Assembly (NCBI GenBank): GCA_016188475.1
Contig: JACPHT010000008.1
Coordinates: forward strand, 34,489-98,488
DNA: 64,000 nucleotides
Direction: 5' to 3'
Source of the DNA: Candidatus Uhrbacteria bacterium
GTDB lineage: Bacteria; Patescibacteriota; Patescibacteriia; UBA9934; GWF2-40-263
Part shown: positions 25,338 through 39,047 of the stretch, piece by piece
Layout: each line of letters opens with the position of its first letter
Numbering within the stretch: position 1 is the stretch's first letter
Notes under the pieces: model-generated
What the model was told of the DNA's origin: nothing
The model's input: only the letters and a program-made list of their open reading frames with translations
The model's database searches: none
Made by a program: the position numbers and the translations under genes

Positions 25338-26300
25338 ATGATGTCTGACGCAATCAAAAATTTTCCAAAACAATTTTCTTACAAACCGGTTATCGAGCTG
25401 ACAAAACGGCTTAAAAAATTTAGTCACTACTATGTGATCGGTATGGGTGGATCTCATCTTGCGGCTGATCTTGCTTTGATTTGGAATCCAAAACTTCCAC
25501 TGACTATTGTTTCAGATTATGGACTGCCATCGCGAGTTACAAAAAAAGATTTGGTTATCGCGAGCTCTTATTCTGGAAATACAGAAGAAATAATTGACGG
25601 TCTCAAAATTGCGTTAAAGAAAAAAATACCGGTTGTTGTGATCGCTATTGGTGGAAAACTCATCGCACTCTCAAAAAAACACAATCTCCCATATATCCAA
25701 CTTCCAAACACAGGGATCCAACCACGTTGTGCTCTTGGATTTAGTTTGCGCGCGCTCTTGAAAATAGTTCGAGACGAACGCGGATTGCGAGAAAGTGCAA
25801 AACTTACAAAAACACTTGTCGCAACCAAATACGAAAAAGCCGGCCAAACACTCGCATCAAAACTTACTGGAAAAGTTCCTGTCATATATTCATCACAAAA
25901 CAACCTCGCGATCGCGTATAATTGGAAAATCAAACTCAACGAAACTGGAAAAATTCCTGCTTTTTATAATGTACTGCCGGAACTCAACCACAATGAAATG
26001 AATGGATTTGATGTTCAACCAACAACCAAACAACTTTGCGATAAATTTCATTTTATATTTTTGAAAGATAAAAAAGATCATGCGCGCGTGCAAAAACGCA
26101 TGTCTATTCTTGAACAACTCTATCGACAGCGCGGTTTACCAGTAGAAATCGTTGAACTCCGAGGCAAAACAGCTTTTGAAAAAATGTTCTCTTCGCTTGT
26201 TTTGGCTGATTGGACAGCGGTTTATCTAGCAAAACACTATGGTTTGGAATCTGAACAAGTGCCAATGGTGGAAAAATTCAAGAAATTGATGAATTCATAA
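25338..26300 (+). CDS. Bifunctional phosphoglucose/phosphomannose isomerase (SIS domain, archaeal-type)
   Basis: VIGMGGSHLAADL. SIS fold. Size 320 aa. Confidence 0.65.
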   Translation: MMSDAIKNFPKQFSYKPVIELTKRLKKFSHYYVIGMGGSHLAADLALIWNPKLPLTIVSDYGLPSRVTKKDLVIASSYSGNTEEIIDGLKIALKKKIPVVVIAIGGKLIALSKKHNLPYIQLPNTGIQPRCALGFSLRALLKIVRDERGLRESAKLTKTLVATKYEKAGQTLASKLTGKVPVIYSSQNNLAIAYNWKIKLNETGKIPAFYNVLPELNHNEMNGFDVQPTTKQLCDKFHFIFLKDKKDHARVQKRMSILEQLYRQRGLPVEIVELRGKTAFEKMFSSLVLADWTAVYLAKHYGLESEQVPMVEKFKKLMNS

Positions 26301-26305
26301 AGGGG

Positions 26306-26334
26306 TTGACAAAAAAATCACCTATTGGTAATTT
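26306..26334 (+). promoter_or_regulatory. Sigma70-type promoter TTGACA-N17-TAATTT for the 26419 gene
   Basis: Consensus -35 hexamer with exact 17-nt spacing to the -10 box. SD aaaggaagg before ATG 26419. Confidence 0.55.
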
Positions 26335-26418
26335 CGGGTCGCAAGTCCGGAAATGCCGGACAAGTTTCTCAATTCCAGATCCCCATAGCGAGAGCGAGAG
26401 GGGGAAAGGAAGGTTCAC

Positions 26419-27300
26419 ATGGCTCTGGTGAAGGAAGCGGAGGTCAAGAAAATCTTGACCGCATACAACGGTTCTGTGGACGAAGGATCGCAACTCAACG
26501 TCGACGAGGTCTGTGCGAAGTTGGCCAAGGCAGGCGGAGGTCTCTCGGCGGCGGCTAAGGAGATGTCCTACGAGGATATCGAAGGTGCCGGGATTCCGAA
26601 GGCGGTTGCGCGCGCGATCAGCAAGGTCTGGCGCGGCGACGGCGAGAAGCCGGCAAAGCTCGGGCCGGAAGTCCAGATCGGCGGAGTCGAAGGAACGTTC
26701 GAGGCCCTGGCATTCGCCATGGGCAACATAGGTGCTTTCGGCGACAAGCCGCTCCTCAAGGTCTACGAACCTCTCGGTCGCGACGACGTCACTGGCGAGC
26801 TTCGCAAGCGCTCAGGTGACAAACCGTTCATCGCGTTCAGTGACAAGCAGACGCTGACGGTCGATGTGGAAGCATCGTATGGGAACCTCCAGCTACTCAA
26901 GCAGGGCGTCGAAATCGGCACAAACACAGTGATCAACGGGAAGCTGACAGAGCTCTTCAGGGCTGGAGAGCTTCCTGATCTCGCACTTCCGATCTGCCCG
27001 GTTCACGGGTGCCATCTCATCGGGGATGGTGAGTTCTGCAAGGAATGCAACTTCAGTTGGTCCGGAGTTTCGACCGAGGTTCGCGAGCTTGCGTGGTGTC
27101 ACGTCCAGAACGTGCTCGCGGAAGTTCCTGGCTCGCAGGACGCGAGACTCAAGCAGATCCTCGCCGCTCTCAGCGACGCAAAGGACCAGTACTGGTCCTC
27201 GGCAACGCTCGAGCTCGAGAAACTCAAGGCAACTGGCCAGCCCATCGTGCTGGTCAAGCCGGTCAAGCGTCCCGGACGCTCGACTCCGTCCCGCCGCTAG
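26419..27300 (+). CDS. Hypothetical protein with HhH-like motif (DIEGAGIPKAVARAIS) and C4 zinc ribbon (CPVHGC...CKEC)
   Basis: Motifs seen by eye. GC-rich. First gene of the island. Confidence 0.5.
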   Translation: MALVKEAEVKKILTAYNGSVDEGSQLNVDEVCAKLAKAGGGLSAAAKEMSYEDIEGAGIPKAVARAISKVWRGDGEKPAKLGPEVQIGGVEGTFEALAFAMGNIGAFGDKPLLKVYEPLGRDDVTGELRKRSGDKPFIAFSDKQTLTVDVEASYGNLQLLKQGVEIGTNTVINGKLTELFRAGELPDLALPICPVHGCHLIGDGEFCKECNFSWSGVSTEVRELAWCHVQNVLAEVPGSQDARLKQILAALSDAKDQYWSSATLELEKLKATGQPIVLVKPVKRPGRSTPSRR

Positions 27301-27320
27301 TACGGCAAACTTCTTCACTT

Positions 27321-27350
27321 CCGTGATCCATCTGGGTCACGGATTTTTTG
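27321..27350 (+). terminator. Intrinsic terminator ccgtgatcc-atctgg-gtcacgg + T6
   Basis: Stem plus T-run directly after the 26419 gene stop. Confidence 0.6.
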
Positions 27351-27362
27351 TACACAAAACTC

Positions 27363-27391
27363 TTGACACATTTACGAAAATCACGTAAAAA
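27363..27391 (+). promoter_or_regulatory. Sigma70-type promoter TTGACA-N17-TAAAAA
   Basis: Same architecture as the promoters at 26306, 31006 and 33998. Confidence 0.55.
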
Positions 27392-27452
27392 ACCTTGTCC
27401 TGCGCCTTCTAATCCTGAAGGATGCTGGAAGTACAATAAAAGTGAGGAAAAC

Positions 27453-28619
27453 ATGTCTCTCTCAAGCCTTAAGTCAGAGATCATCTTCCCCTACTTTCAA
27501 TCAGTTGGGGACCTAGATCCAAATTCCGCGACCGATCGTGTTGCGACGGAAATTCTCAAATCCGGGGCCGGTGTCAAAGCAGTTGCCGCGTCAATCCAAG
27601 CTGAAGACCTTATTGGAACAGAGCTTCCGCTTGCAATCAGAAAAGCGCTAGCAATTCGCATCAGAGAAGACGCAATCGCGACAGTCGAAGTTACAACAGG
27701 CGACACGCGAAAGAATCTTCGTCCGGGATCGTTCGATGATGTGATCGGCCACGCAGACTTCAAACGTCTCATGTCAAACGCGATCACTGCCGCGCGCAAG
27801 CAAGGCGTTCCTCTTCGCCATATTCTCTTGAACGGTCCGCGCGGACTTGGCAAAACCACTCTCGCTCTTGTGATCGCAAACGAGCTAAAAGCAAAAGCGC
27901 GTTTGCTCGTTGGATCGCAATTACGAACACCGGTCGACATCACGAACGAGGTTCTGCGATGGGAAAAAGGGTCGGTCGTTTTCATTGACGAGATCCACGG
28001 CATGAGCCGTGCCGCTCAAGAAACGCTTTACAGCGTGATGGAAGACGGCCGCTTGCCAATTACCGAAAAAAGAAAAGGACACCAGACAAAGACGAGCGTT
28101 CCAGCGCCATCAATCACGATCATTGGCGCGACAACAAATCCGTCCAAGTTGCTGGAGCCTTTCCGAAATCGGTTCGGGTCAAAGTATGAACTCGGTTTCT
28201 ACTCGAACGACGAGATGAAAAAGATCGGACAACGATCAGCATCCATTCTCGGTCTGACGATCGAACCATCGGCTGTTCAAAAGCTTGTTGCGCACTGTCG
28301 CGACAATCCACGCACTCTCAACGAGTTCCTGCTCCAACTGAACGATCTGTCCATTGCTCAATCGTTATTGTCCGTCACAGTCGAACACGTTTCAGACCTT
28401 TTGAAACTCAACGGCTATGATGAACAGGGTTTGCGTCCTGAAGAACGTCGCTATGTGGAAGCGCTCAAAACGATCGGTGGAAGTGGCAGTCTCAAAACCA
28501 TAGCCGAGACGCTTGACATGGAAGTTTCAGAAGTCGAAGGAACGATCGAGCGATGGTTGGTGCGTAAAGGAATGATTCGCCGGACTCCAAAAGGCCGGCA
28601 GATCATAGAAAGGAGCTGA
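27453..28619 (+). CDS. RuvB-family AAA+ ATPase paralog with ~50-aa N-terminal extension
   Basis: Collinear with RuvB over its whole length: LRP...IGH...LLNGPRGLGKTTLALVIANEL, FIDEIHGMS, LYSVMEDG, IGATTNPS, PFRNRFG, C-terminal winged helix RTPKGRQI. SD gagga before ATG 27453. Confidence 0.7.
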   Translation: MSLSSLKSEIIFPYFQSVGDLDPNSATDRVATEILKSGAGVKAVAASIQAEDLIGTELPLAIRKALAIRIREDAIATVEVTTGDTRKNLRPGSFDDVIGHADFKRLMSNAITAARKQGVPLRHILLNGPRGLGKTTLALVIANELKAKARLLVGSQLRTPVDITNEVLRWEKGSVVFIDEIHGMSRAAQETLYSVMEDGRLPITEKRKGHQTKTSVPAPSITIIGATTNPSKLLEPFRNRFGSKYELGFYSNDEMKKIGQRSASILGLTIEPSAVQKLVAHCRDNPRTLNEFLLQLNDLSIAQSLLSVTVEHVSDLLKLNGYDEQGLRPEERRYVEALKTIGGSGSLKTIAETLDMEVSEVEGTIERWLVRKGMIRRTPKGRQIIERS

Positions 28620-28622
28620 GAA

Positions 28623-29765
28623 ATGGACTTTCCTGTTATTGTTCTAAAAACTGGAAAAGAGTCAATCCCGGACGGCCCTGCCGTAATCATAATCGCGAAA
28701 AACGGCAAGTTTCTCTTGAAGCGACTTGGAATAGTCGAGGCCGCGGTTCCGTACACAGACCAGATTTCAGGACTTGCCGAATACGAGACTTGGGCAGAGC
28801 TCAATGTTGAGAAAATTCCGTTCGAGATCTTCATCCAGGTCTTTCACTTCATGCGAACGATCTACAACAACAAGAAGACGGAATGCAATGTGATTCTGTT
28901 CTATCATCAAAAGGAAAAACAGTGGGCTGTTGTGGTTCCACCACAGATTGTCTCGCACAGCAGTGTGCACTATCAGGATGGTATCGCGGGAGCGAAAGAC
29001 GGATGGATCAAAGTTGGAACACTCCACAGTCACTGCGACTTTTCAGCAGGACATAGCGGTGGCGATCACAGAGACGAAGAGCACTTCGACGGAATCCACA
29101 TCACGCTCGGTCACGTTGACAAAGACGAACCCACATTGAGTGTAAGTCTTGTCGTCAACGGCATGCGGTTCATGAAAACTCCGCAAGAATACATTGCTGG
29201 AGTCAAACGTGTTGAAGAAAAAGAAATGGTCCAGGAATACGAAACAAAGTGGGTTGATGGCGATGATACCGCTGACGAAAGTCACGCAGAGCAAGAAGAG
29301 TCTTTGGTGACTAGCATGTGCACATTAGTGACTAGATTTCTACCGAAGTTCGGTGGTGGGGAGATCGGCGGTACTAGTAACACATATGTCAAACCCAGTT
29401 GGCCTACCAAGGTCTACAAGTACAGACCCCAAAAGCGAATCGAAGTTCCAACCAAAATGGTGGAACGCACAGTCTCCAGACTTGTGTTCGACTTTCCTGA
29501 AGGAAAAAAGGTGGAGGATTATGAATTTCCGCAGGAATGGTTGGACAATGTGAAGACATCGTACGAGTTGCACAAGATGGAACATCCTGTTCGTCCAAGA
29601 CGGAGAAGAAAATTCCGTGATGCGGGCGTTTCAAAAAGTAACGACCATCAACAAGAGTCAATAAACAATGAGGAAGAAGAAACAGCTTACACATGTATGA
29701 CCGACGATGAACTTGCGGAGATAATCTCAAGGCATCAACGTGGATGCCAAGAAGGAGAAGAATGA
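28623..29765 (+). CDS. JAB/MPN (JAMM) metallopeptidase-domain protein
   Basis: Exact JAMM motif HSHCDFSAGHSGGD (HxHx7Sx2D) at 29025-29066, with an upstream Glu. SD ggag before the ATG. Only a 3-nt gap after the RuvB-like stop. Confidence 0.7.
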   Translation: MDFPVIVLKTGKESIPDGPAVIIIAKNGKFLLKRLGIVEAAVPYTDQISGLAEYETWAELNVEKIPFEIFIQVFHFMRTIYNNKKTECNVILFYHQKEKQWAVVVPPQIVSHSSVHYQDGIAGAKDGWIKVGTLHSHCDFSAGHSGGDHRDEEHFDGIHITLGHVDKDEPTLSVSLVVNGMRFMKTPQEYIAGVKRVEEKEMVQEYETKWVDGDDTADESHAEQEESLVTSMCTLVTRFLPKFGGGEIGGTSNTYVKPSWPTKVYKYRPQKRIEVPTKMVERTVSRLVFDFPEGKKVEDYEFPQEWLDNVKTSYELHKMEHPVRPRRRRKFRDAGVSKSNDHQQESINNEEEETAYTCMTDDELAEIISRHQRGCQEGEE

Positions 29766-29766
29766 G

Positions 29767-30534
29767 ATGAAGGAACTGAACATCGTGGTAGTCGGAATAG
29801 GAGGTGTTGGAAGCGCTCTTGTTCCAAAGCTCTGTCGCTATTGTCAGCACATCAAGCCCCAGGTTCCTGTCAGTCTGGTTCTGATCGACGGAGACTTGTA
29901 CGAACAGAACAACGCGAATCGACAGTCGTTTCATCGGTTCGGAAACAAAGCAGAGGTTACGGTTGAAGCTCTCGCGCCTCAATTCGACCGAATTCAACTC
30001 TCGGCAATAGCCGAGTTCCTCAAACCCGACAACATTGACTTCATCATCGCTGAAGGCTCGATCGTTTTCCTGTGCGTTGACAACAACACATCAAGAAAGA
30101 TGGTCGATGATTTCACACACAAGTTCAAGAACATTGTCGTCATCTGCGGCGGAAACGACATGACTGACGGAAACGTACAGATCTACATCCGTCGCAAAGG
30201 CAAGGACATAACAGCATCACTCGCTGACATTCATCCAGAAATCGCTTCGCCACAAGGCAAGGCTCCGTATCAAATGAACTGCGAAGAGCTAGCGATGGCA
30301 TCATCTCCACAGCTTTTCTTCGCCAACGATTTGGTCAGCGCTCTGATGTGTCTGGTCTTCTACCAGATAATCGAAGTCAAGGACTTTCTTGACAAACCTA
30401 GGTTCGGTGAGCTTTACTTTGACATGCTACTAGGTCGCGTTGAATCTGTTGTTCGAAATCCTGTTGTCAAAGTGGCACAGGTTGATCGAAAAAAGTGTAA
30501 GGGCAAGTCCAAGCCAGCAAAGAAAGGAAGGTAG
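29767..30534 (+). CDS. E1-like ubiquitin-activating enzyme of the minimal ThiF/MoeB type. The track's alternative GTG start is 29740.
   Basis: Rossmann VVVGIGGVGS. DGDLYEQNNANRQ (DxDxxExxNxNRQ) at 29887-29925. CVDNNTSR. Catalytic-Cys loop NCEELAMASSPQ. SD ggagaag. Start is 1 nt after the JAB stop. Confidence 0.7.
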   Translation: MKELNIVVVGIGGVGSALVPKLCRYCQHIKPQVPVSLVLIDGDLYEQNNANRQSFHRFGNKAEVTVEALAPQFDRIQLSAIAEFLKPDNIDFIIAEGSIVFLCVDNNTSRKMVDDFTHKFKNIVVICGGNDMTDGNVQIYIRRKGKDITASLADIHPEIASPQGKAPYQMNCEELAMASSPQLFFANDLVSALMCLVFYQIIEVKDFLDKPRFGELYFDMLLGRVESVVRNPVVKVAQVDRKKCKGKSKPAKKGR

Positions 30535-30536
30535 TG

Positions 30537-30953
30537 ATGGCAAGGAGATACTCGGAGCAGGAACTTCTCGGCAAGACCAAGTTGAGTCTGCGAGAGGTCT
30601 GCAATGAAATCGGGCTCGAGTTCAACAATAGCATGAGCATCGACGAACTGGTCAAGGCAATCATGAAGCGTCAAGGTGGTGCGCAGAACGCAGCGCCTGC
30701 AGAAGACGACGGAGACACAACGGACAACGAAAACGAAGGCGGTTCTGTAACTGTGACCTGTGGCGCTTCGAGCCAGGTCCTGGAAGTCGCTGGCAAGTCT
30801 ATCGCGTACGTTCGCAGGGAATACGCGTCCGTTTTCAACATCGGTCGCGAAAGCAAGGCAATGCTCAACGGAGCCGAGGAGAACGACGAAAGTCACATTC
30901 TCGAAGACGGGGACAACCTCGAGTTCGTCAAGAAGAGCGGAGACAAAGCATAA
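30537..30953 (+). CDS. Rho_N-like helix-hairpin domain fused to a ThiS/MoaD-like beta-grasp ubiquitin-like domain, ending ...LEDGDNLEFVKKSG-DKA
   Basis: N-terminus SEQELLGKTKLSLREVCNEIGLEF...SIDELVKAIMKRQ, a Rho_N pattern. C-terminus has the beta-grasp DGD...EFV...SG pattern with a 3-residue tail. Its ATG sits 2 nt after the E1 stop TAG (the alternative GTG start at 30534 overlaps it). Confidence 0.55.
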   Translation: MARRYSEQELLGKTKLSLREVCNEIGLEFNNSMSIDELVKAIMKRQGGAQNAAPAEDDGDTTDNENEGGSVTVTCGASSQVLEVAGKSIAYVRREYASVFNIGRESKAMLNGAEENDESHILEDGDNLEFVKKSGDKA

Positions 30954-30976
30954 ACTAGTCTTCCGCTGGTAACTTA

Positions 30977-31005
30977 CCCACGACAAACTGTCGTGGGATT
31001 TTTTA
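30977..31005 (+). terminator. Intrinsic terminator cccacgaca-aac-tgtcgtggg + T-run
   Basis: 9-bp perfect stem with T-run, seen directly. Confidence 0.7.
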
Positions 31006-31034
31006 TTGACAAAAAATTACTTTTGATGTAAAAA
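31006..31034 (+). promoter_or_regulatory. Sigma70-type promoter TTGACA-N17-TAAAAA
   Basis: Same module as the other island promoters. Confidence 0.55.
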
Positions 31035-31081
31035 ATCTCGTCTGCCAAGAATGGCAGTGCTCATTACAATGAGGTTACAAC

Positions 31082-33790
31082 ATGAGTATTTGGGAAGAAA
31101 CCGCAATCCATCTCACTCCAGACGGCCTTGCCGAACTTCGCACTGACCGTGTGAAATCAACACCAAAAGGAACTCCACTCAGACTTAAAGTGGCACGCCG
31201 AAGTTTTGCGATAACAGACTTGCTCGGCAAACAGAGCGAACAGGAAATCAATCACCGCTTTTGTCGTTTCGTATACACAAAAGGAAATGTTACATGGTAC
31301 GTGGTCGAAGAGCCTCCGTGCATACGAACGGTAACATGGTCATTCTTAAATGAAGATTGGAAAAAAATCCAAGATCGAGGATTGATCCGCAAGTTGGGCC
31401 TGGATCCAAAAACAGATTCAAAGCGAACACGATTTCAATTCGCGTTCCCGTACACGATTTTTCTTCTGCCAATCTCGCCATATGATGGCGGGGTTTCACT
31501 CGGGTTGGGACAGATAGCGCTCCGCGCAGAACCACTACGCAGTCTTCAGGACGACCTATTCTGGGCTCCGTTTTCAAACCAAAGAAGTACAAACGGCGAT
31601 ATGTGTCTTGGAGATAAGAGACCAAGCAAAGCTAAGGCTCCGTGCGAGCTGATTGATCAGCTTATCGCTCACTGGTGGCTAAGCAATTTCAATGATCACT
31701 GGGTCGAGCGATACATAACGTATCAGGAACGAATCCCTGAAATGGCAACGCCATGGGAATGGGAATACTACAGCAAAAGGCGCCCATCATGGGTTCTTGA
31801 AGCTGATTGGATTCGAATGGGAATGACAGTCGAAGAAAAACTCGTCGTTGGCAAAAGTAATAAAACCACTATATTCGCGGATCTTGCGAGAATAGCCAAG
31901 TCTGCTCCAGAAGTGATTCCTGGATCTGACTGGAAAAAAACTAAAAAAGACGAAGCTCGCGCAACAAAAGCGACACTTATGCCTTACGGACAGACAGTTC
32001 AGGTTGGTGACGAGTTTTACTGTACAAACTCTGTGTTAGATTTCCAAGCTGGCAAAACATACAATGTAAATAATATAGAAAACTGCTCATGCGGCGATCC
32101 AGGACACACAGCCTTGTACTTTCAAGGTGGTGGATGTTTGAAGGCCTGTGATGTTCATCATTACTTTCAACGCGCTGACAAATTTCCAACACAACTGTTT
32201 CAGATTGGGTCGCATCAGATCTGGACCGGAACAAAATTCGTCCTCGTGAACAATGATGACATTACTGGAATTCGCACTGGCGCATACATGATCTCGGCGT
32301 TGATGGTAGACCAAGAAGGTGATGTCAAAATCAGAGTCTCTGGACTTTCTGGCTGGATTTACATAACGCACGAACAAACTCTCTTGCCATCTATCAGACT
32401 GTTCATTCCTGAACTCAAGGACAACACGTTTACATACGGCGAGTCCACATTGAAAGTCGGGACAACTGTCAATGTGGTAAACGGCGCAACGAAGATCCAA
32501 AATAAACTGTTACGTGTTGAATCAATAACTCAAGAGGATCAGTCATACTTCGTGACATTCGAAGGACGACAGGAACGATTTTCTCTCTTTTCGAGCGGAA
32601 CCCTTCAGATGAATTGGGAGACGACCGTTTACGAATTCTCTGAACAGCGCGTCGGATTCGGAAAAAAAATTCTTGATTTGACCACTCACACACATATTCT
32701 TGTAAGAGTGGCTGAACAACCGCTTCGCAACGGGACAATATACGAAGCACTTCACTTCGTTCATCCTGAAGGCAAGCACCCACTTGACGTTGACCTTTTA
32801 ATCGCAAACGGAAACGAAACAATTCCGGTTGTTCGCGATTCAAAATGGGTCTTCCCTGAAGCATACACTCCTGTCACGGTCATCTACCAAGATGACGCGT
32901 TGACACTTAAGTCAGGCGAAGTCTTGGTTTGCCAAATAACCGATGTTCCAGGAATCAAAAAAAACGAAGAGGTGACCATACTGTGCTTTATGGAGTCATC
33001 AATTGAAAATCGAAGGCTGATCATAGTCCTGACTGATGGACGAACGATTTGCCTTACGCAAGATACATTGAAGTACTTTGTCCGTAAGGCAAAACCAACA
33101 TGGACCGTGGAAGAGGTAAGACGACTTCCTGAAATATGGTTTAACACAAGCAAAGCGTTTGAGAAACCTCAATCGCTTAACACACTTCCAAAACCGCTCG
33201 TCAGAGCAATCTTGAAGAGAAAAAGCCTAAAGGGCTTTGGTCAGTTTGTTTCTAAGGACTTCAACGGCAACGCTCTTCATATCGGAGACATTGTGTGTAT
33301 TCGCTATATTGCGTTTTTCCAAGGAAACGGTGGTATAGAATCGCAGTACAGTAATAAGTACGCGCTGGTTGTTCATTCATATCTGAATCCAGCACAAAGA
33401 TACTATTACTCATACCTCTTCCTTGGAGTTCAAACTGCTGAAGGAAGAGTTAACATCAGAAGCGACTCTGCTGAATTTGAGAAAGTGGATCCTGAATACC
33501 AAGGTCAAGAAGCCAGAAGACAAATGGCTATCAACATAAACGATTATCTTCAAGTGTGCACCTTCGATGATAGTTTCACTACTATGATCGAAGAAGGGTC
33601 GCTTGTCAGGATTCGTCATGATGTAAATCCAAAGTACGGCCGCGGAAACGTGCAAGCAAACGAAGTCGGAAGAGTTCGTCGACTTATTGAAAACGAGGAG
33701 GTCGTTGTTGACTTCCCCGCAGAAACTGAATGGATCGGACTGATCAACGAGATTGAAATCTGTCCATTTGAGCCTAGCCAACATGTTTAG
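31082..33790 (+). CDS. Large hypothetical protein A (902 aa), paralog of 34082-36682
   Basis: Many conserved blocks with paralog B (PPCIRTV..W, TRFxxAFPYTIF, WEWE, LLPSI..IP.LKDNTFT.G, TILCF). No known motif recognised. Confidence 0.6.
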   Translation: MSIWEETAIHLTPDGLAELRTDRVKSTPKGTPLRLKVARRSFAITDLLGKQSEQEINHRFCRFVYTKGNVTWYVVEEPPCIRTVTWSFLNEDWKKIQDRGLIRKLGLDPKTDSKRTRFQFAFPYTIFLLPISPYDGGVSLGLGQIALRAEPLRSLQDDLFWAPFSNQRSTNGDMCLGDKRPSKAKAPCELIDQLIAHWWLSNFNDHWVERYITYQERIPEMATPWEWEYYSKRRPSWVLEADWIRMGMTVEEKLVVGKSNKTTIFADLARIAKSAPEVIPGSDWKKTKKDEARATKATLMPYGQTVQVGDEFYCTNSVLDFQAGKTYNVNNIENCSCGDPGHTALYFQGGGCLKACDVHHYFQRADKFPTQLFQIGSHQIWTGTKFVLVNNDDITGIRTGAYMISALMVDQEGDVKIRVSGLSGWIYITHEQTLLPSIRLFIPELKDNTFTYGESTLKVGTTVNVVNGATKIQNKLLRVESITQEDQSYFVTFEGRQERFSLFSSGTLQMNWETTVYEFSEQRVGFGKKILDLTTHTHILVRVAEQPLRNGTIYEALHFVHPEGKHPLDVDLLIANGNETIPVVRDSKWVFPEAYTPVTVIYQDDALTLKSGEVLVCQITDVPGIKKNEEVTILCFMESSIENRRLIIVLTDGRTICLTQDTLKYFVRKAKPTWTVEEVRRLPEIWFNTSKAFEKPQSLNTLPKPLVRAILKRKSLKGFGQFVSKDFNGNALHIGDIVCIRYIAFFQGNGGIESQYSNKYALVVHSYLNPAQRYYYSYLFLGVQTAEGRVNIRSDSAEFEKVDPEYQGQEARRQMAININDYLQVCTFDDSFTTMIEEGSLVRIRHDVNPKYGRGNVQANEVGRVRRLIENEEVVVDFPAETEWIGLINEIEICPFEPSQHV

Positions 33791-33817
33791 CTAAGACCGC
33801 AATGTCAGCCCAAATTC

Positions 33818-33958
33818 ATGATGGGCAAAGCGCAACACGGCGAGCATGGTGTCTTCAAAGAACTTCTCAATGACGGCGTGGTTGTCGTGGACTTTCCAAA
33901 CCATCAAGGGTGGTTTGGAGACATAAACGACATCCAACCAGCCGGTACAACGAAATAG
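33818..33958 (+). CDS. Small ORF (46 aa), MMGKAQHGEHGVFKELLNDGVVVVDFPNHQGWFGDINDIQPAGTTK
   Basis: Resembles the C-terminal block of protein A (GRVRRLIENEEVVVDFPAETEWIGLINEIEI). No clear SD. Confidence 0.3.
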   Translation: MMGKAQHGEHGVFKELLNDGVVVVDFPNHQGWFGDINDIQPAGTTK

Positions 33959-33972
33959 GTCATGTTCTCTGT

Positions 33973-33996
33973 CCTGCCTAAAAGGCAGGATTTTTT
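33973..33996 (+). terminator. Intrinsic terminator cctgcc-taaaa-ggcagg + T-run
   Basis: Seen directly. Confidence 0.65.
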
Positions 33997-33997
33997 C

Positions 33998-34026
33998 TTG
34001 ACAAAAAAACAAAAAAGCGGTAAAAG
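33998..34026 (+). promoter_or_regulatory. Sigma70-type promoter TTGACA-N17-TAAAAG
   Basis: Same module. SD aggaaag before ATG 34082. Confidence 0.55.
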
Positions 34027-34081
34027 AATAGGCCGCATTTTGCGGTCGCCCTTTACAAAAACCTTTCAAAGGAAAGTGAAA

Positions 34082-36682
34082 ATGGCTGGAAAACTTATCG
34101 TCTTGAGTGACAAGGAAACCGCAACGCTCACAGATGACAGTGGAAGTTCAACTGTTCCGCTGTCTGCAATAGCCACAAGCGATTCAAAAGGTACTCTTCT
34201 TCCAACCGATTGTCGGATTCACATTACCAACGGTCTGGCAAGTGTGTTTGTTATCGAACAACAGCCATGCGTTCGTGATGTGAACTGGAACACAAGTAAA
34301 GATGAATGGAAAAATCTCATCTCTCGCGGAGCAAAATCATTCGCGCAAGTGAAAGGAAACGAAACAAAAACACGGTTCCGTCTCGCCTTTCCATACACAA
34401 TTTTCATTGTTCGAATGGAAGGAATATGTGTTACGAGCATACGCGTTTTCTTCCGTAGCCACACGATCTCAACACCGACTGATTATCTTCAGCAAGCAGG
34501 GCTTCTAAAAGACGACACTCTGGTTGTTGAAGATCAAAAACAGATTCTTCATCATGGCATGACACAAGCCAGTACTGTTAACGTGGCTGTTGAATACTTC
34601 TGGCATCAAACACTCGGAACAGGTGAACTGATCGGAACTGTTCATCCAGACGTTCCTGAAGTGTCAAGTGTTTGGGAATGGGAATCGGCTTCGCGCAAGC
34701 ATCAAGACTGGATTCTCAAAGCACAGTGGGAAAAAACCGATCTCAACTTGAAAACCGCATCGCAAGCAATGTTGCAGTTACCTGATGCGAAAGATGGTGA
34801 AGACCAGACTTTCGCCACAGTCGCCGCGCGAATCCGTCATAGTGTGCCAAACAAGAAAACGCGCGACCACGAATTGATCGAGAGTCCATGTGTTTCCATA
34901 ATGCTTGGAACAACTCGTTTACGACAAGGCGATACGATCGTTTCTAGCAAACGCCAGTTCGGATGCAAAAAAGACAAGCAATACCTTGTGCTTGGATTCT
35001 ACGAACGAACAAGCAAAGGCGTTGTGCACGCAAGACTTGATGGAGTTGCCAATCCTGTTCCGATTGGAACTTCCAAAGGCTTGGTTGATTTCAAGCTCTT
35101 ACAACCTGAACGAGAAGTCGTGAGTGAGATAACGTACAATGGAGTCGTGTTCAAAACAGGAACAAAATTCTGTGTCTCATCAGGCGAAGACATAGGTTTG
35201 TTAGCAACAGACATTGAATACATAATAAAGAAACTCGAGGTTGATTCTGAGGGAGATGCCAGAGTCAAGATTGCTGACTTAAATACTTGGTTCTATATCA
35301 CATACGATGGCGGAAAACTTCTGCCGTCAATATATCAAAACATTCCGAGTCTCAAAGACAATACTTTCACTTTCGGCAAGCAGAAAATGAGTGTTGGGAC
35401 GTTTGTGGAAATCACTGGAAGCGCGGCAAAAGTTCAAGACACTCTTCTCCGAGTTGCTTCGATCGCTCAAGAGCGCGAAGCATACATTGCCACGTTTGAA
35501 GGACATGAAGAAAAAATCACCATTTACAAAAATGGTGAGCGTCAAATCGATTGGAACACAGTAACATACGAATTCTCGGACAAGCGAGTTGTGCTTGGCA
35601 ACAAAGTTCTGGATCTGACTGATTGCGAATCTATGCTTATAACAATATCAGAAGATTCTCAAGAAGTCGGAAAAATGCACAAAGTGAAAGGCCTTGTTCA
35701 TCCAACAGATGGACACAGGTTTGATGTGAACCTCGTTGTTGACGATAAGCAGATCCCAGTGATCAAACATTCAAACTGGGTCTTCAGAATCAAGCACGAA
35801 CAAGTATCTGACAGATATGATGATGGAGCTTTGACTCTGCAATCAGGTGAAGTCCTCATATGCGTGGATACAATCACTGGTCTGACCAAGGACGAGGAGC
35901 TGACTATTCTGTGTTTTGGCAAAAACAAAACAACCAAAGATCTCACTGACATCATTTTCTCTGATGGACGAGCGATAAACATGACTCAAGCGTCTCTCAA
36001 GCTATTCTCTCGCAAAGATGGGAAGCCGTGGAGTGAGAAAAAAATTGCAAAACTCCCGCAAGGTTCTCCTCCAACGACTCGAGTGCAACAAGGTGAACGC
36101 TGTAGAGTAACGACTAATAACATCAACGGTGAAATCGGAACTGTAACTGACAAATCGTACGACGATAGGTTTGTAAAATTCGACAATCCTCAACCAAACG
36201 GTCGTGGACCGACAATTACAGAAGGCTGGTTTCTGTATAAATACCTTGAACGTCTTGATAAGTCCAAAGTCACATGGTGTTTCTCCAAAAATGCTAGAGT
36301 TGAAAAACGAAGCGATGGGACTTTAATCCAACTTCCAACAGAGCTGATAATAGAGCTCACAACCATTCAACGAATACCCACAAAACTGACGGATTTGTTT
36401 GGGAACTCTTTGTCTGTTGGCGACATCGTCGTGCCAATTTATCAAGGATTCACTAAAGAATGTCCTAGACGAGTAATCGGAATTCCGATGCTAGTCGTTC
36501 ACTACAGTTCAAGCGGTTCTCCATTCTTGTTTCTCTGGGCTGGATCTACACACAAACCTGGAGTGTTAAGCCGCGACTGTCGTGATTTCAATACAATAAC
36601 AATAGCCTTCAAAGATCGTCTTAACGAACTCTACGTCAACCCGCCGAAAGATTGTGAAAAAATCACTTTCATCGAAGCCTAA
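34082..36682 (+). CDS. Large hypothetical protein B (~866 aa from ATG 34082). The track start 33962 lies upstream of the promoter and is rejected.
   Basis: Paralog of A. Confidence 0.6.
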   Translation: MAGKLIVLSDKETATLTDDSGSSTVPLSAIATSDSKGTLLPTDCRIHITNGLASVFVIEQQPCVRDVNWNTSKDEWKNLISRGAKSFAQVKGNETKTRFRLAFPYTIFIVRMEGICVTSIRVFFRSHTISTPTDYLQQAGLLKDDTLVVEDQKQILHHGMTQASTVNVAVEYFWHQTLGTGELIGTVHPDVPEVSSVWEWESASRKHQDWILKAQWEKTDLNLKTASQAMLQLPDAKDGEDQTFATVAARIRHSVPNKKTRDHELIESPCVSIMLGTTRLRQGDTIVSSKRQFGCKKDKQYLVLGFYERTSKGVVHARLDGVANPVPIGTSKGLVDFKLLQPEREVVSEITYNGVVFKTGTKFCVSSGEDIGLLATDIEYIIKKLEVDSEGDARVKIADLNTWFYITYDGGKLLPSIYQNIPSLKDNTFTFGKQKMSVGTFVEITGSAAKVQDTLLRVASIAQEREAYIATFEGHEEKITIYKNGERQIDWNTVTYEFSDKRVVLGNKVLDLTDCESMLITISEDSQEVGKMHKVKGLVHPTDGHRFDVNLVVDDKQIPVIKHSNWVFRIKHEQVSDRYDDGALTLQSGEVLICVDTITGLTKDEELTILCFGKNKTTKDLTDIIFSDGRAINMTQASLKLFSRKDGKPWSEKKIAKLPQGSPPTTRVQQGERCRVTTNNINGEIGTVTDKSYDDRFVKFDNPQPNGRGPTITEGWFLYKYLERLDKSKVTWCFSKNARVEKRSDGTLIQLPTELIIELTTIQRIPTKLTDLFGNSLSVGDIVVPIYQGFTKECPRRVIGIPMLVVHYSSSGSPFLFLWAGSTHKPGVLSRDCRDFNTITIAFKDRLNELYVNPPKDCEKITFIEA

Positions 36683-36694
36683 CCATTCTTTCTT

Positions 36695-36730
36695 ATCGCC
36701 GTCGTGCACCAGCACCGGCGATTTTTTATT
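36695..36730 (+). terminator. Intrinsic terminator atcgccg-...-cggcgat + T6
   Basis: Seen directly. End of the island. Confidence 0.65.
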
Positions 36731-36750
36731 TCTAACTATAGAAGGATGTG

Positions 36751-36838: not shown

Positions 36839-39028
36839 CTATATCTTCATCTTTTTTAGTCTGAGCGAATTCAACACAACTGAAATTGACGAAAACGCCA
36901 TCGCGGCTGAAGCGATAACTGGATTTAATAATCCAAGCGCGGCAAGTGGAATACCAATCACGTTATAAATAAACGCCCAAAATAAATTTTGTTTGATTGT
37001 TCTGTTTGTGCGACGCGAAATTTCGATTGCTTGAATAACTTTTTCTGGTCCGCCGCCAACAAGAACAATTTGTCCTGCTTCAATCGCAATATCCGTTCCA
37101 CTTCCAACCGCGATTCCAAGATCAGCTTGAGTGAGCGCTGGCGCATCATTGATTCCATCTCCAACAAAAGCGACTTTCTGTCCTTTGTTTTGCGCGTCTT
37201 TCACAATCTCGAGTTTTTGATCAGGAAACACTTGCGATCGAACATCTTCAATTCCAAGTTGTCGCGCGATCGCTTCGGCTGTTTGTTTTTGATCGCCGGT
37301 AATCATCACAACACCGATTCCTTTTTGTTTAAGTCTTTCAATCGTTTCTTTCGCGTTTGGTTTCACAGCATCAGCAATTCCAATCACGCCAATCGCCTGC
37401 AAGTCTCGTGCAACAATTACAACTGTCTTCCCTTCTTCGGAAAGTTTTGAAATTGTTTGATGTAAAATCGGTGATACGACGACACCAAGCTCATCCATCC
37501 ACCTTGATTGACCAACGCGAATCATTGTTTCACCAACACGAGCTTCTATTCCTTTTCCTGTTACAGAACGAAAATCTTTCACCGTTTCAATGGAAATTTT
37601 TTCATCGTTCGCTTTCATAACAACCGCGTGCGCAAGCGGATGTTCAGAAAGCGATTCAACCCCTGCCGCAACACGCAAAACCTCTTGCTCATTTTGACCT
37701 TCTATCGCAACAAGATCCGTAACAACTGGTTTCCCAATTGTGAGCGTTCCTGTTTTATCAAACATGACGACATTTAGTGTTCGACCACGCTCAAGAGCTT
37801 CCCCACTTTTAATCAGAATTCCCATTTGAGCTCCGCGACCGGTTCCAACCAAAATCGCGGTCGGAGTAGCAAGACCAAGCGCACACGGACACGCGATCAC
37901 GAGCACTGCCACAGCCGCGATAAGCGACATCGCAATACCACCGGTTACAAAGAACCAAATTATGAAAGTTAAAATCGCTATTCCAATCACTGCCTGAACA
38001 AACACCGCTGACACACGATCAACAAGTTTTTGAATTGGAGCTTTTTTCTGCTGTGCCTCTTTCACAAGCCTGACAATCTGCGCGAGAACCGTGTCACTGC
38101 TTTCTTTTTCAACCTCAACTGTCAAAGCGCCTTGTTGATTCAGTGTCGCGCCGTAAACAAGATCGCCTACTTTTTTTGAAACAGGCAAACTCTCGCCTGT
38201 TAGCATTGATTCATCAACTGACGAAGCGCCGTCTTTAATTGTTCCATCAATAGGAATCTTCTCGCCAGGCTTCACAAGAACAATATCGCCTTTTTTGAGC
38301 GACTCAATCGGAACGTCTTCTGTACTTCCATCCAACGATCGCTTATGCGCAAATTTTGCCCCAAGTTCGAGCAATTTTTGAATCGCGGCGCTTGCCTGAC
38401 CTTTACTTCTGGCTTCCAAATATCGTCCAATCAAAATAAAGGCAGTTATGATCGCAGCGGTTTCAAAATACTTTGGCTGATTTACCGCAAATGCCCACCA
38501 ACTCAATGCGAGAGCGGCGAGCGTTCCAAGCGAAATGAGAGAATCCATGCTAGCGGTTTTGCGCAACATTTGTTGAAAAGCCGCCTTGTGAAAAACCATT
38601 CCGGTTCCAAGAACAACATAAGTTCCGCCGATTGCTTCAATCCAATTTGAAATCTGTTCGCCGAAAATTTCAGGTCCAAATTTCAAACGCGCTGTTGCGA
38701 TTATCAAAACCGGTAACGCAACAACACTCGCTACAATAGCTCGAGTCAATACTTCTTTTTCTGATCCATGCGCGTGCTGTTCATGCTGTTCACCATGTTC
38801 TTCATGTTCCATGTGTTGTTCCATTTGTCGAACACGGTAACCTTCTTTTTGCACGATTTGATGAAGCGCGTGTTCTTGCACTTTCTCTGGATCAAACTCA
38901 ATTGTTGCTTCAGCAAGCGCATAATTCACATTCGCGCTTTGCACGCCTTCTGTTTTTTTGAACGCGGCTTCGATTCGAATCGCGCACGACGCGCAGTGCA
39001 TTCCGTCAATGTTGAATGTTGATTTCAT
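36839..39028 (-). CDS. copA: Copper-translocating P-type ATPase. The ORF track gives 39040 with a TTG start.
   Basis: N-terminal [15 protein letters not shown]. His-rich segment. [18 protein letters not shown]. Confidence 0.9.
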
Positions 39029-39047
39029 AAAAATAGTCAATGAAGTC

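Follow-up and report, generated by a model that had tools for sequence, protein, structure and literature searches.

A predicted ubiquitin-like conjugation block with giant E2-domain proteins and a RuvB paralog in Candidatus Uhrbacteria

Introduction

Seven neighbouring genes in a Candidatus Uhrbacteria genome raise the question of whether they encode a complete ubiquitin-like (Ubl) conjugation pathway, and what a RuvB-family motor does among them. CBASS type II, Bil and Bub are characterised bacterial ubiquitination-like operons with a thioester cascade; among related operon classes, which are mobile, CBASS type II and Bil are known defence systems. RuvB-family motors act on double-stranded DNA. 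A preliminary description had read the block as a horizontally acquired island with an E2-less conjugation module of the SAMP/TtuB kind. Here we analysed the block within the window, which is the whole 64-kb stretch of DNA.

Results

Organization of the block

All seven genes at 26300-36735 were confirmed, on the + strand between PGI/PMI and copA (Table 1), and the elevated GC content described for them holds when computed across the window (0.472, versus 0.415 in the remaining window). Within the 64 kb, GC peaks at 26300-31000 (0.51), and the P1 gene reaches 0.603 (GC3 = 0.74). The form TTGACA-N17-TAWWWW has three matches in the 64 kb (0.29 expected; 0/100 shuffles reach three), all of them inside the block, which together with the TAAAAG site at 33998 correspond to the four near-identical promoters described previously. 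Five related loci have such promoter-like sites at the corresponding places. A terminator had been claimed before each promoter; this is true of three, while the first promoter lies directly after the PGI stop codon. The hairpin downstream of P7 (ATCGCCG...CGGCGAT) was missed by the terminator scan because its loop is 14 nt long (36702-36715).

The idea of a recently acquired, promoter-autonomous island was not borne out. A relative with 78% identity in P6 has the block at the same PGI/copA site. The GC excess of about six points recurs in three orthologous blocks (L004, L007 and L016), where E1 shares only 51-87% identity with the window's E1. Host genes carry the same promoter form, so the promoter layout is no mark of foreign origin. 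Neither an integrase nor a flanking tRNA was seen adjoining the block.

Table 1. Positions of genes, motifs and signals in and beside the block (window coordinates).
Feature	Position	Strand	Length	Remarks
PGI/PMI	25338-26300			upstream flank
Promoter-like site 1	26306-26334	+		TTGACA-N17-TAATTT, 5' of P1; orthologous sites in L007 (4952), L004 (5151)
P1	26419-27300	+	293 aa	family-conserved metal site and C-terminus
P1 metal site	26995-27048			C193/H196/C207/C210
Terminator-like hairpin and T-run	27320-27350	+		3' of P1
Promoter-like site 2	27363-27391	+		TTGACA-N17-TAAAAA, 5' of RuvBL-JAB-E1-Ubl unit; orthologous sites in L016, L018
RuvBL	27453-28619	+	388 aa	RuvB paralog; lid and RuvB_C winged helix
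RuvBL Walker A	27834-27860			GPRGLGKTT
RuvBL Walker B	27981-27998			FIDEIH
JAB/JAMM peptidase	28623-29765	+	380 aa	JAB-N-like N-terminal region
JAB Glu motif	28878-28892			TECNV
JAB HxHx7Sx2D motif	29025-29066			aa 135-148
E1 (minimal, ThiF family)	29767-30534	+	255 aa from ATG	alternative GTG at 29740
E1 Cys loop	30274-30288			MNCEE
Ubl	30534-30953	+	138-139 aa	AF2 model and homolog alignment
Terminator-like hairpin and T-run	30977-31004	+		3' of Ubl gene
Promoter-like site 3	31006-31034	+		TTGACA-N17-TAAAAA, 5' of P6; orthologous sites in L007, L004, L008, L018
P6, predicted active giant E2	31082-33790	+	902 aa	Prok-E2_D-related domain at about aa 55-255
P6 Asn/Cys motif	31571-31612			Asn166, Cys175
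P6 HERC2/KEG-type repeat	33596-33757			aa 839-892
In-frame TAG and 56 intact codons	33788-33958	+		TAG at 33788-33790; codons encode rest of second HERC2-type repeat
Terminator-like hairpin and T-run	33971-33996	+		3' of P6
Promoter-like site 4	33998-34026	+		TTGACA-N17-TAAAAG, 5' of P7; orthologous sites in L007 (12949), L004 (12970)
P7, putative pseudo-E2	34082-36682	+	866 aa	own barrel array; E2N HMM 199 bits
P7 E2-like region	34388-34585			contains LLKDDT--LVVED
Hairpin and T-run	36695-36728	+		3' of P7; read by eye
copA	36839-39040	-		downstream flank

JAB, E1 and Ubl

The three core proteins named in the preliminary description were recovered with the features given there. The JAMM/JAB peptidase is a metalloprotease whose active site is intact; it has the exact HxHx7Sx2D motif HSHCDFSAGHSGGD, a Glu within TECNV and a poorly conserved C-terminal extension of about 190 aa. 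Adenylation motifs are present in the ThiF/MoeB-like E1 (Pfam ThiF, 2e-18), which contains GIGGVG, NANRQ and CVDN, and its Cys172, within MNCEE, is invariant. Ubl has a three-helix head of Rho_N/HeH-like type joined by a disordered linker to a beta-grasp domain; its AF2 model (pLDDT 77) gave fold matches to MoaD, Urm1, SUMO and ubiquitin. As described, three residues follow SG at its C-terminus (SG135-D-K137-A); G135 and K137 are invariant in 63 homologs (a G-x-K tail), and the terminal residue is Ala in the Uhrbacteria clade. Because of this Ala end and the invariant Lys137 in the supposedly removed tail, the role of Gly135 as processing or attachment site is uncertain.

A sulfur-carrier pathway of the ThiS/MoaD/CysO/TtuB type, serving cofactor or thionucleoside synthesis, could also employ such proteins: among NCBIfam models, ThiF gives E1 its lowest E-value (1.7e-12, with a score far short of the cut-off), and MoaD and Urm1 can be superposed on the model of Ubl. 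However, no ThiG/ThiH/MoaE/CysM/TtuA-type partner or rhodanese domain was found in or beside the block in any context read, in agreement with the earlier preference for Ubl conjugation over cofactor biosynthesis. The paired CxxC zinc motifs are missing from E1, the block contains both an E2 and a pseudo-E2 (see below), and the core cassette adjoins RNA polymerase genes in phage genomes. We consider a sulfur-carrier role hardly tenable.

E2 domains in the giant proteins

P6 and P7 had been reported as giant paralogs, and they are 31% identical over 640 aa (E = 6e-95). Neither has a direct Pfam, NCBIfam or PADLOC match, and fold searches of the whole P6 model were dominated by its barrel array. 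Sequence comparison suggests that the N-terminal ~250 aa of both are Prok-E2_D-related E2 domains, an assignment that is transitive: Pfam Prok-E2_D is matched by 14 of 55 family members and by 7 of 10 small stand-alone members (four above the gathering score), and an hhalign comparison of the family with nine PRTRC_B sequences gave 69.9% probability (P = 4e-5, 212 columns) with the Cys motifs aligned. P6 has Asn166 and Cys175 within FSNQRSTNGDMCLG, and 123 N-terminal homologs keep N166 in 88% and C175 in 90%. The E2-like domain of P7 reads LLKDDT--LVVED; because the Asn and Cys are missing from it, P7 is interpreted as a pseudo-E2 (UEV-like). Counted across every locus with a readable active-site region, the second giants of the window, L004, L007/L106, L016/L110, L108 and L109 have neither residue.

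These domains contradict the description of the block as E2-less and its analogy to SAMP/TtuB, since both giants begin with a Prok-E2_D-related domain and P7 appears to be a dead copy of a protein whose Asn and Cys are conserved. An E2-less E1, Ubl and JAMM system, in which conjugation needs E1 alone and the giants serve as unrelated cargo or targets, would fit the minimal, MoeB/ThiF-like E1 and the lack of direct database matches for P6 and P7. It is very improbable given the homology of the giants' N-terminal domains to Prok-E2_D with the conserved Asn/Cys motif, and given that JAB, E1 and Ubl are accompanied by an E2-domain gene in all viral loci whose upstream sequence is long enough, as well as in most loci from MAGs.

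After the E2 domain, the AF2 model of P6 (pLDDT 86.5) shows an array of SH3/KOW/Tudor-like barrels of about 600-650 aa, which ends in HERC2/KEG-type repeats (E = 1e-14 and 4e-10). This combination of E2 domain, barrels and terminal repeats makes the predicted protein similar to E2/E3 hybrids, for example UBE2O. The TAG at its end is GAG in the L007 ortholog and is also TAG in two assemblies (L001 and L002). As the 56 in-frame codons after the TAG complete the second repeat, the C-terminus of P6 is truncated in this population, and with this premature stop the window's copy may be decaying.

P1 and the RuvB paralog

The RuvB-family AAA+ motor was confirmed in RuvBL (Pfam RuvB_N 1.7e-37, plus lid and RuvB_C), whose stop codon lies 3 nt 5' of the JAB start codon. 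Its 85-aa N-terminal extension is similar to the N-terminus of P1 (about 60 aa shared, E = 9e-6). P1 has an invariant metal site and ends in an invariant ATGQPIVLVKP; no known domain was found in it, with zero Pfam or PDB sequence matches and no recognisable DNA-binding domain in profile and sequence searches. The C4 zinc ribbon proposed for it has to be revised to C-H-C-C, the second Cys not being conserved, and the proposed HhH is supported by no profile match. The P1 family has 15 members, and the cassette is present in four of four contexts read (L004, L016, L018 and the window).

RuvBL might instead be the housekeeping Holliday-junction motor, with P1 as a divergent RuvA and the Ubl cassette as an unrelated neighbour. 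It is homologous to RuvB over its full length, its Walker motifs and winged helix are intact, and it is the sole RuvB-like ORF within the 64-kb window. However, it falls below both NCBIfam RuvB equivalog cut-offs (247 < 282 and 217 < 299), it shares its extension with P1, and P1 has no match to RuvA_N, HHH or RuvA_C. P1 and RuvBL accompany the cassette across at least three genomic contexts. In L018, where the block is split, RuvBL remains in one operon with JAB-E1-Ubl, and in L008, P1, RuvBL and P7 are jointly absent while the upstream flank otherwise matches L004. We regard the housekeeping role as improbable. RuvBL is tied to the Ubl pathway by gene linkage alone.

Distribution of the cassette

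Synteny of the E2-JAB-E1-Ubl cassette extends across 78 viral contigs, which come from AT-rich phages with their own RNA polymerase, and its order is constant in the 63 of these 78 loci that show all four genes. The four-gene cassette also occurs in MAGs of many phyla. Among the loci seen, the seven-gene form with P1, the RuvB paralog and the pseudo-E2 is confined to Uhrbacteria-type loci (L004-6, L007, L016 and L107-L110; rearranged in L018), with at least three different flanks. The preliminary description did not recognise this association, and no description of a Ubl pathway combined with a RuvB-type motor was found in the literature searched.

Discussion

The closest described kind is PRTRC, i.e. 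operon class 6d of Iyer, Burroughs and Aravind (2006), itself uncharacterised. Both have a related E1 (PRTRC_ThiF, 8e-11), a JAB that carries an additional domain at its N-terminus (PRTRC_A, 3.5e-8, covering 30-188 of 192, nearly the whole model) directly upstream of E1, a Prok-E2_D-type E2, a beta-grasp Ubl with C-terminal Gly, and a linked nucleotide-dependent DNA-binding protein (ParB in PRTRC, the RuvB paralog here). However, all matches are far below the NCBIfam cut-offs, and the block has no alpha-hel2 (PRTRC_F), PRTRC_E or ParB. Its Ubl is not Pfam Prok_Ub and has a Rho_N-like head, and its E2 is fused to ~600-650 aa of barrel domains and duplicated as active and dead copies. The class-6d marker His downstream of the Cys aligns with Asp205 of P6, flanked by family-consensus Asn204 and Asp206. 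PRTRC is found on proteobacterial plasmids and ICEs, whereas the block is chromosomal in CPR bacteria.

CBASS type II (Cap2/Cap3), Bil and Bub likewise co-encode E1 and E2 with a Ubl (or a target C-terminus) and a peptidase, of JAB or another type, in a thioester cascade. The block differs from them in that its E2 belongs to another family and is a protein separate from E1, its Ubl carries a head of nucleic-acid-binding type, it includes a RuvB paralog and P1, and it lacks a CD-NTase or any other known effector; the only PADLOC matches to these systems are weak ones to E1-E2 (best E = 4.5e-4). With the eukaryotic E2/E3 hybrids UBE2O and BIRC6 and the Mib/HERC2/KEG repeat E3 ligases, P6 shares the union of an E2 catalytic domain and SH3-like substrate-binding domains in one polypeptide, a likeness that implies no direct descent; its E2 domain differs in being N-terminal and of prokaryotic family D type. 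The C-terminal repeat also matches repeats in a 5908-aa protein whose C-terminus is read as a HECT-type E3 (E = 8e-29), and HERC2-type repeats occur only in Uhrbacteria-type giants, not in phage giants. As in Ubc13-Mms2/Uev1a, an active E2 and a Cys-less paralog stand side by side in every seven-gene locus with a readable second-giant site; P6 and P7 might pair physically, both are about 900 aa, unlike the eukaryotic pair, and their paralogy is independent of the UEV family. RuvBL aligns with solved RuvB structures over AAA+ core, lid and winged helix (E = 1e-47), and differs from the RuvAB motor in its extra N-terminal domain, its sub-cut-off scores, its strict linkage to the Ubl cassette and a partner, P1, without detectable RuvA similarity.

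Sequence and models together indicate that the block probably encodes a complete four-enzyme Ubl conjugation pathway with a lineage-specific DNA-motor module. JAB would remove the D-K-A tail, exposing Gly135, and may later reverse conjugates; E1 would adenylate Ubl, carry it on Cys172 and hand it on to Cys175 of P6. The barrel array of P6 could bind substrates in the manner of an E3 within the same protein, as in UBE2O, and P7 could be a UEV-like partner or alternative adaptor. P1 and RuvBL, which share a putative N-terminal docking domain, might link the pathway with DNA by recruiting it there or by remodelling Ubl-marked DNA-bound proteins.

In an anti-phage or anti-plasmid defence system, P1/RuvBL acting on foreign DNA would trigger Ubl conjugation to invader or host proteins. 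Such a role is conceivable only because of the phage and plasmid distribution of relatives, the nearest being on plasmids (PRTRC) and in phages; presence/absence variation between L008 and L004 and the mobile, partly defensive character of related operon classes, on which Iyer et al. (2006) speculate, also fit it. On the other hand, PADLOC gave no system match, the neighbourhood showed no defence genes, the block keeps its chromosomal place in the relative with 78% identity in P6, and the phage cassette is a syntenic core gene set rather than a defence island. We hold defence proper to be possible but unlikely. For the predicted conjugation pathway with its DNA motor, we infer that the most likely role lies in DNA transactions or phage/plasmid conflict.

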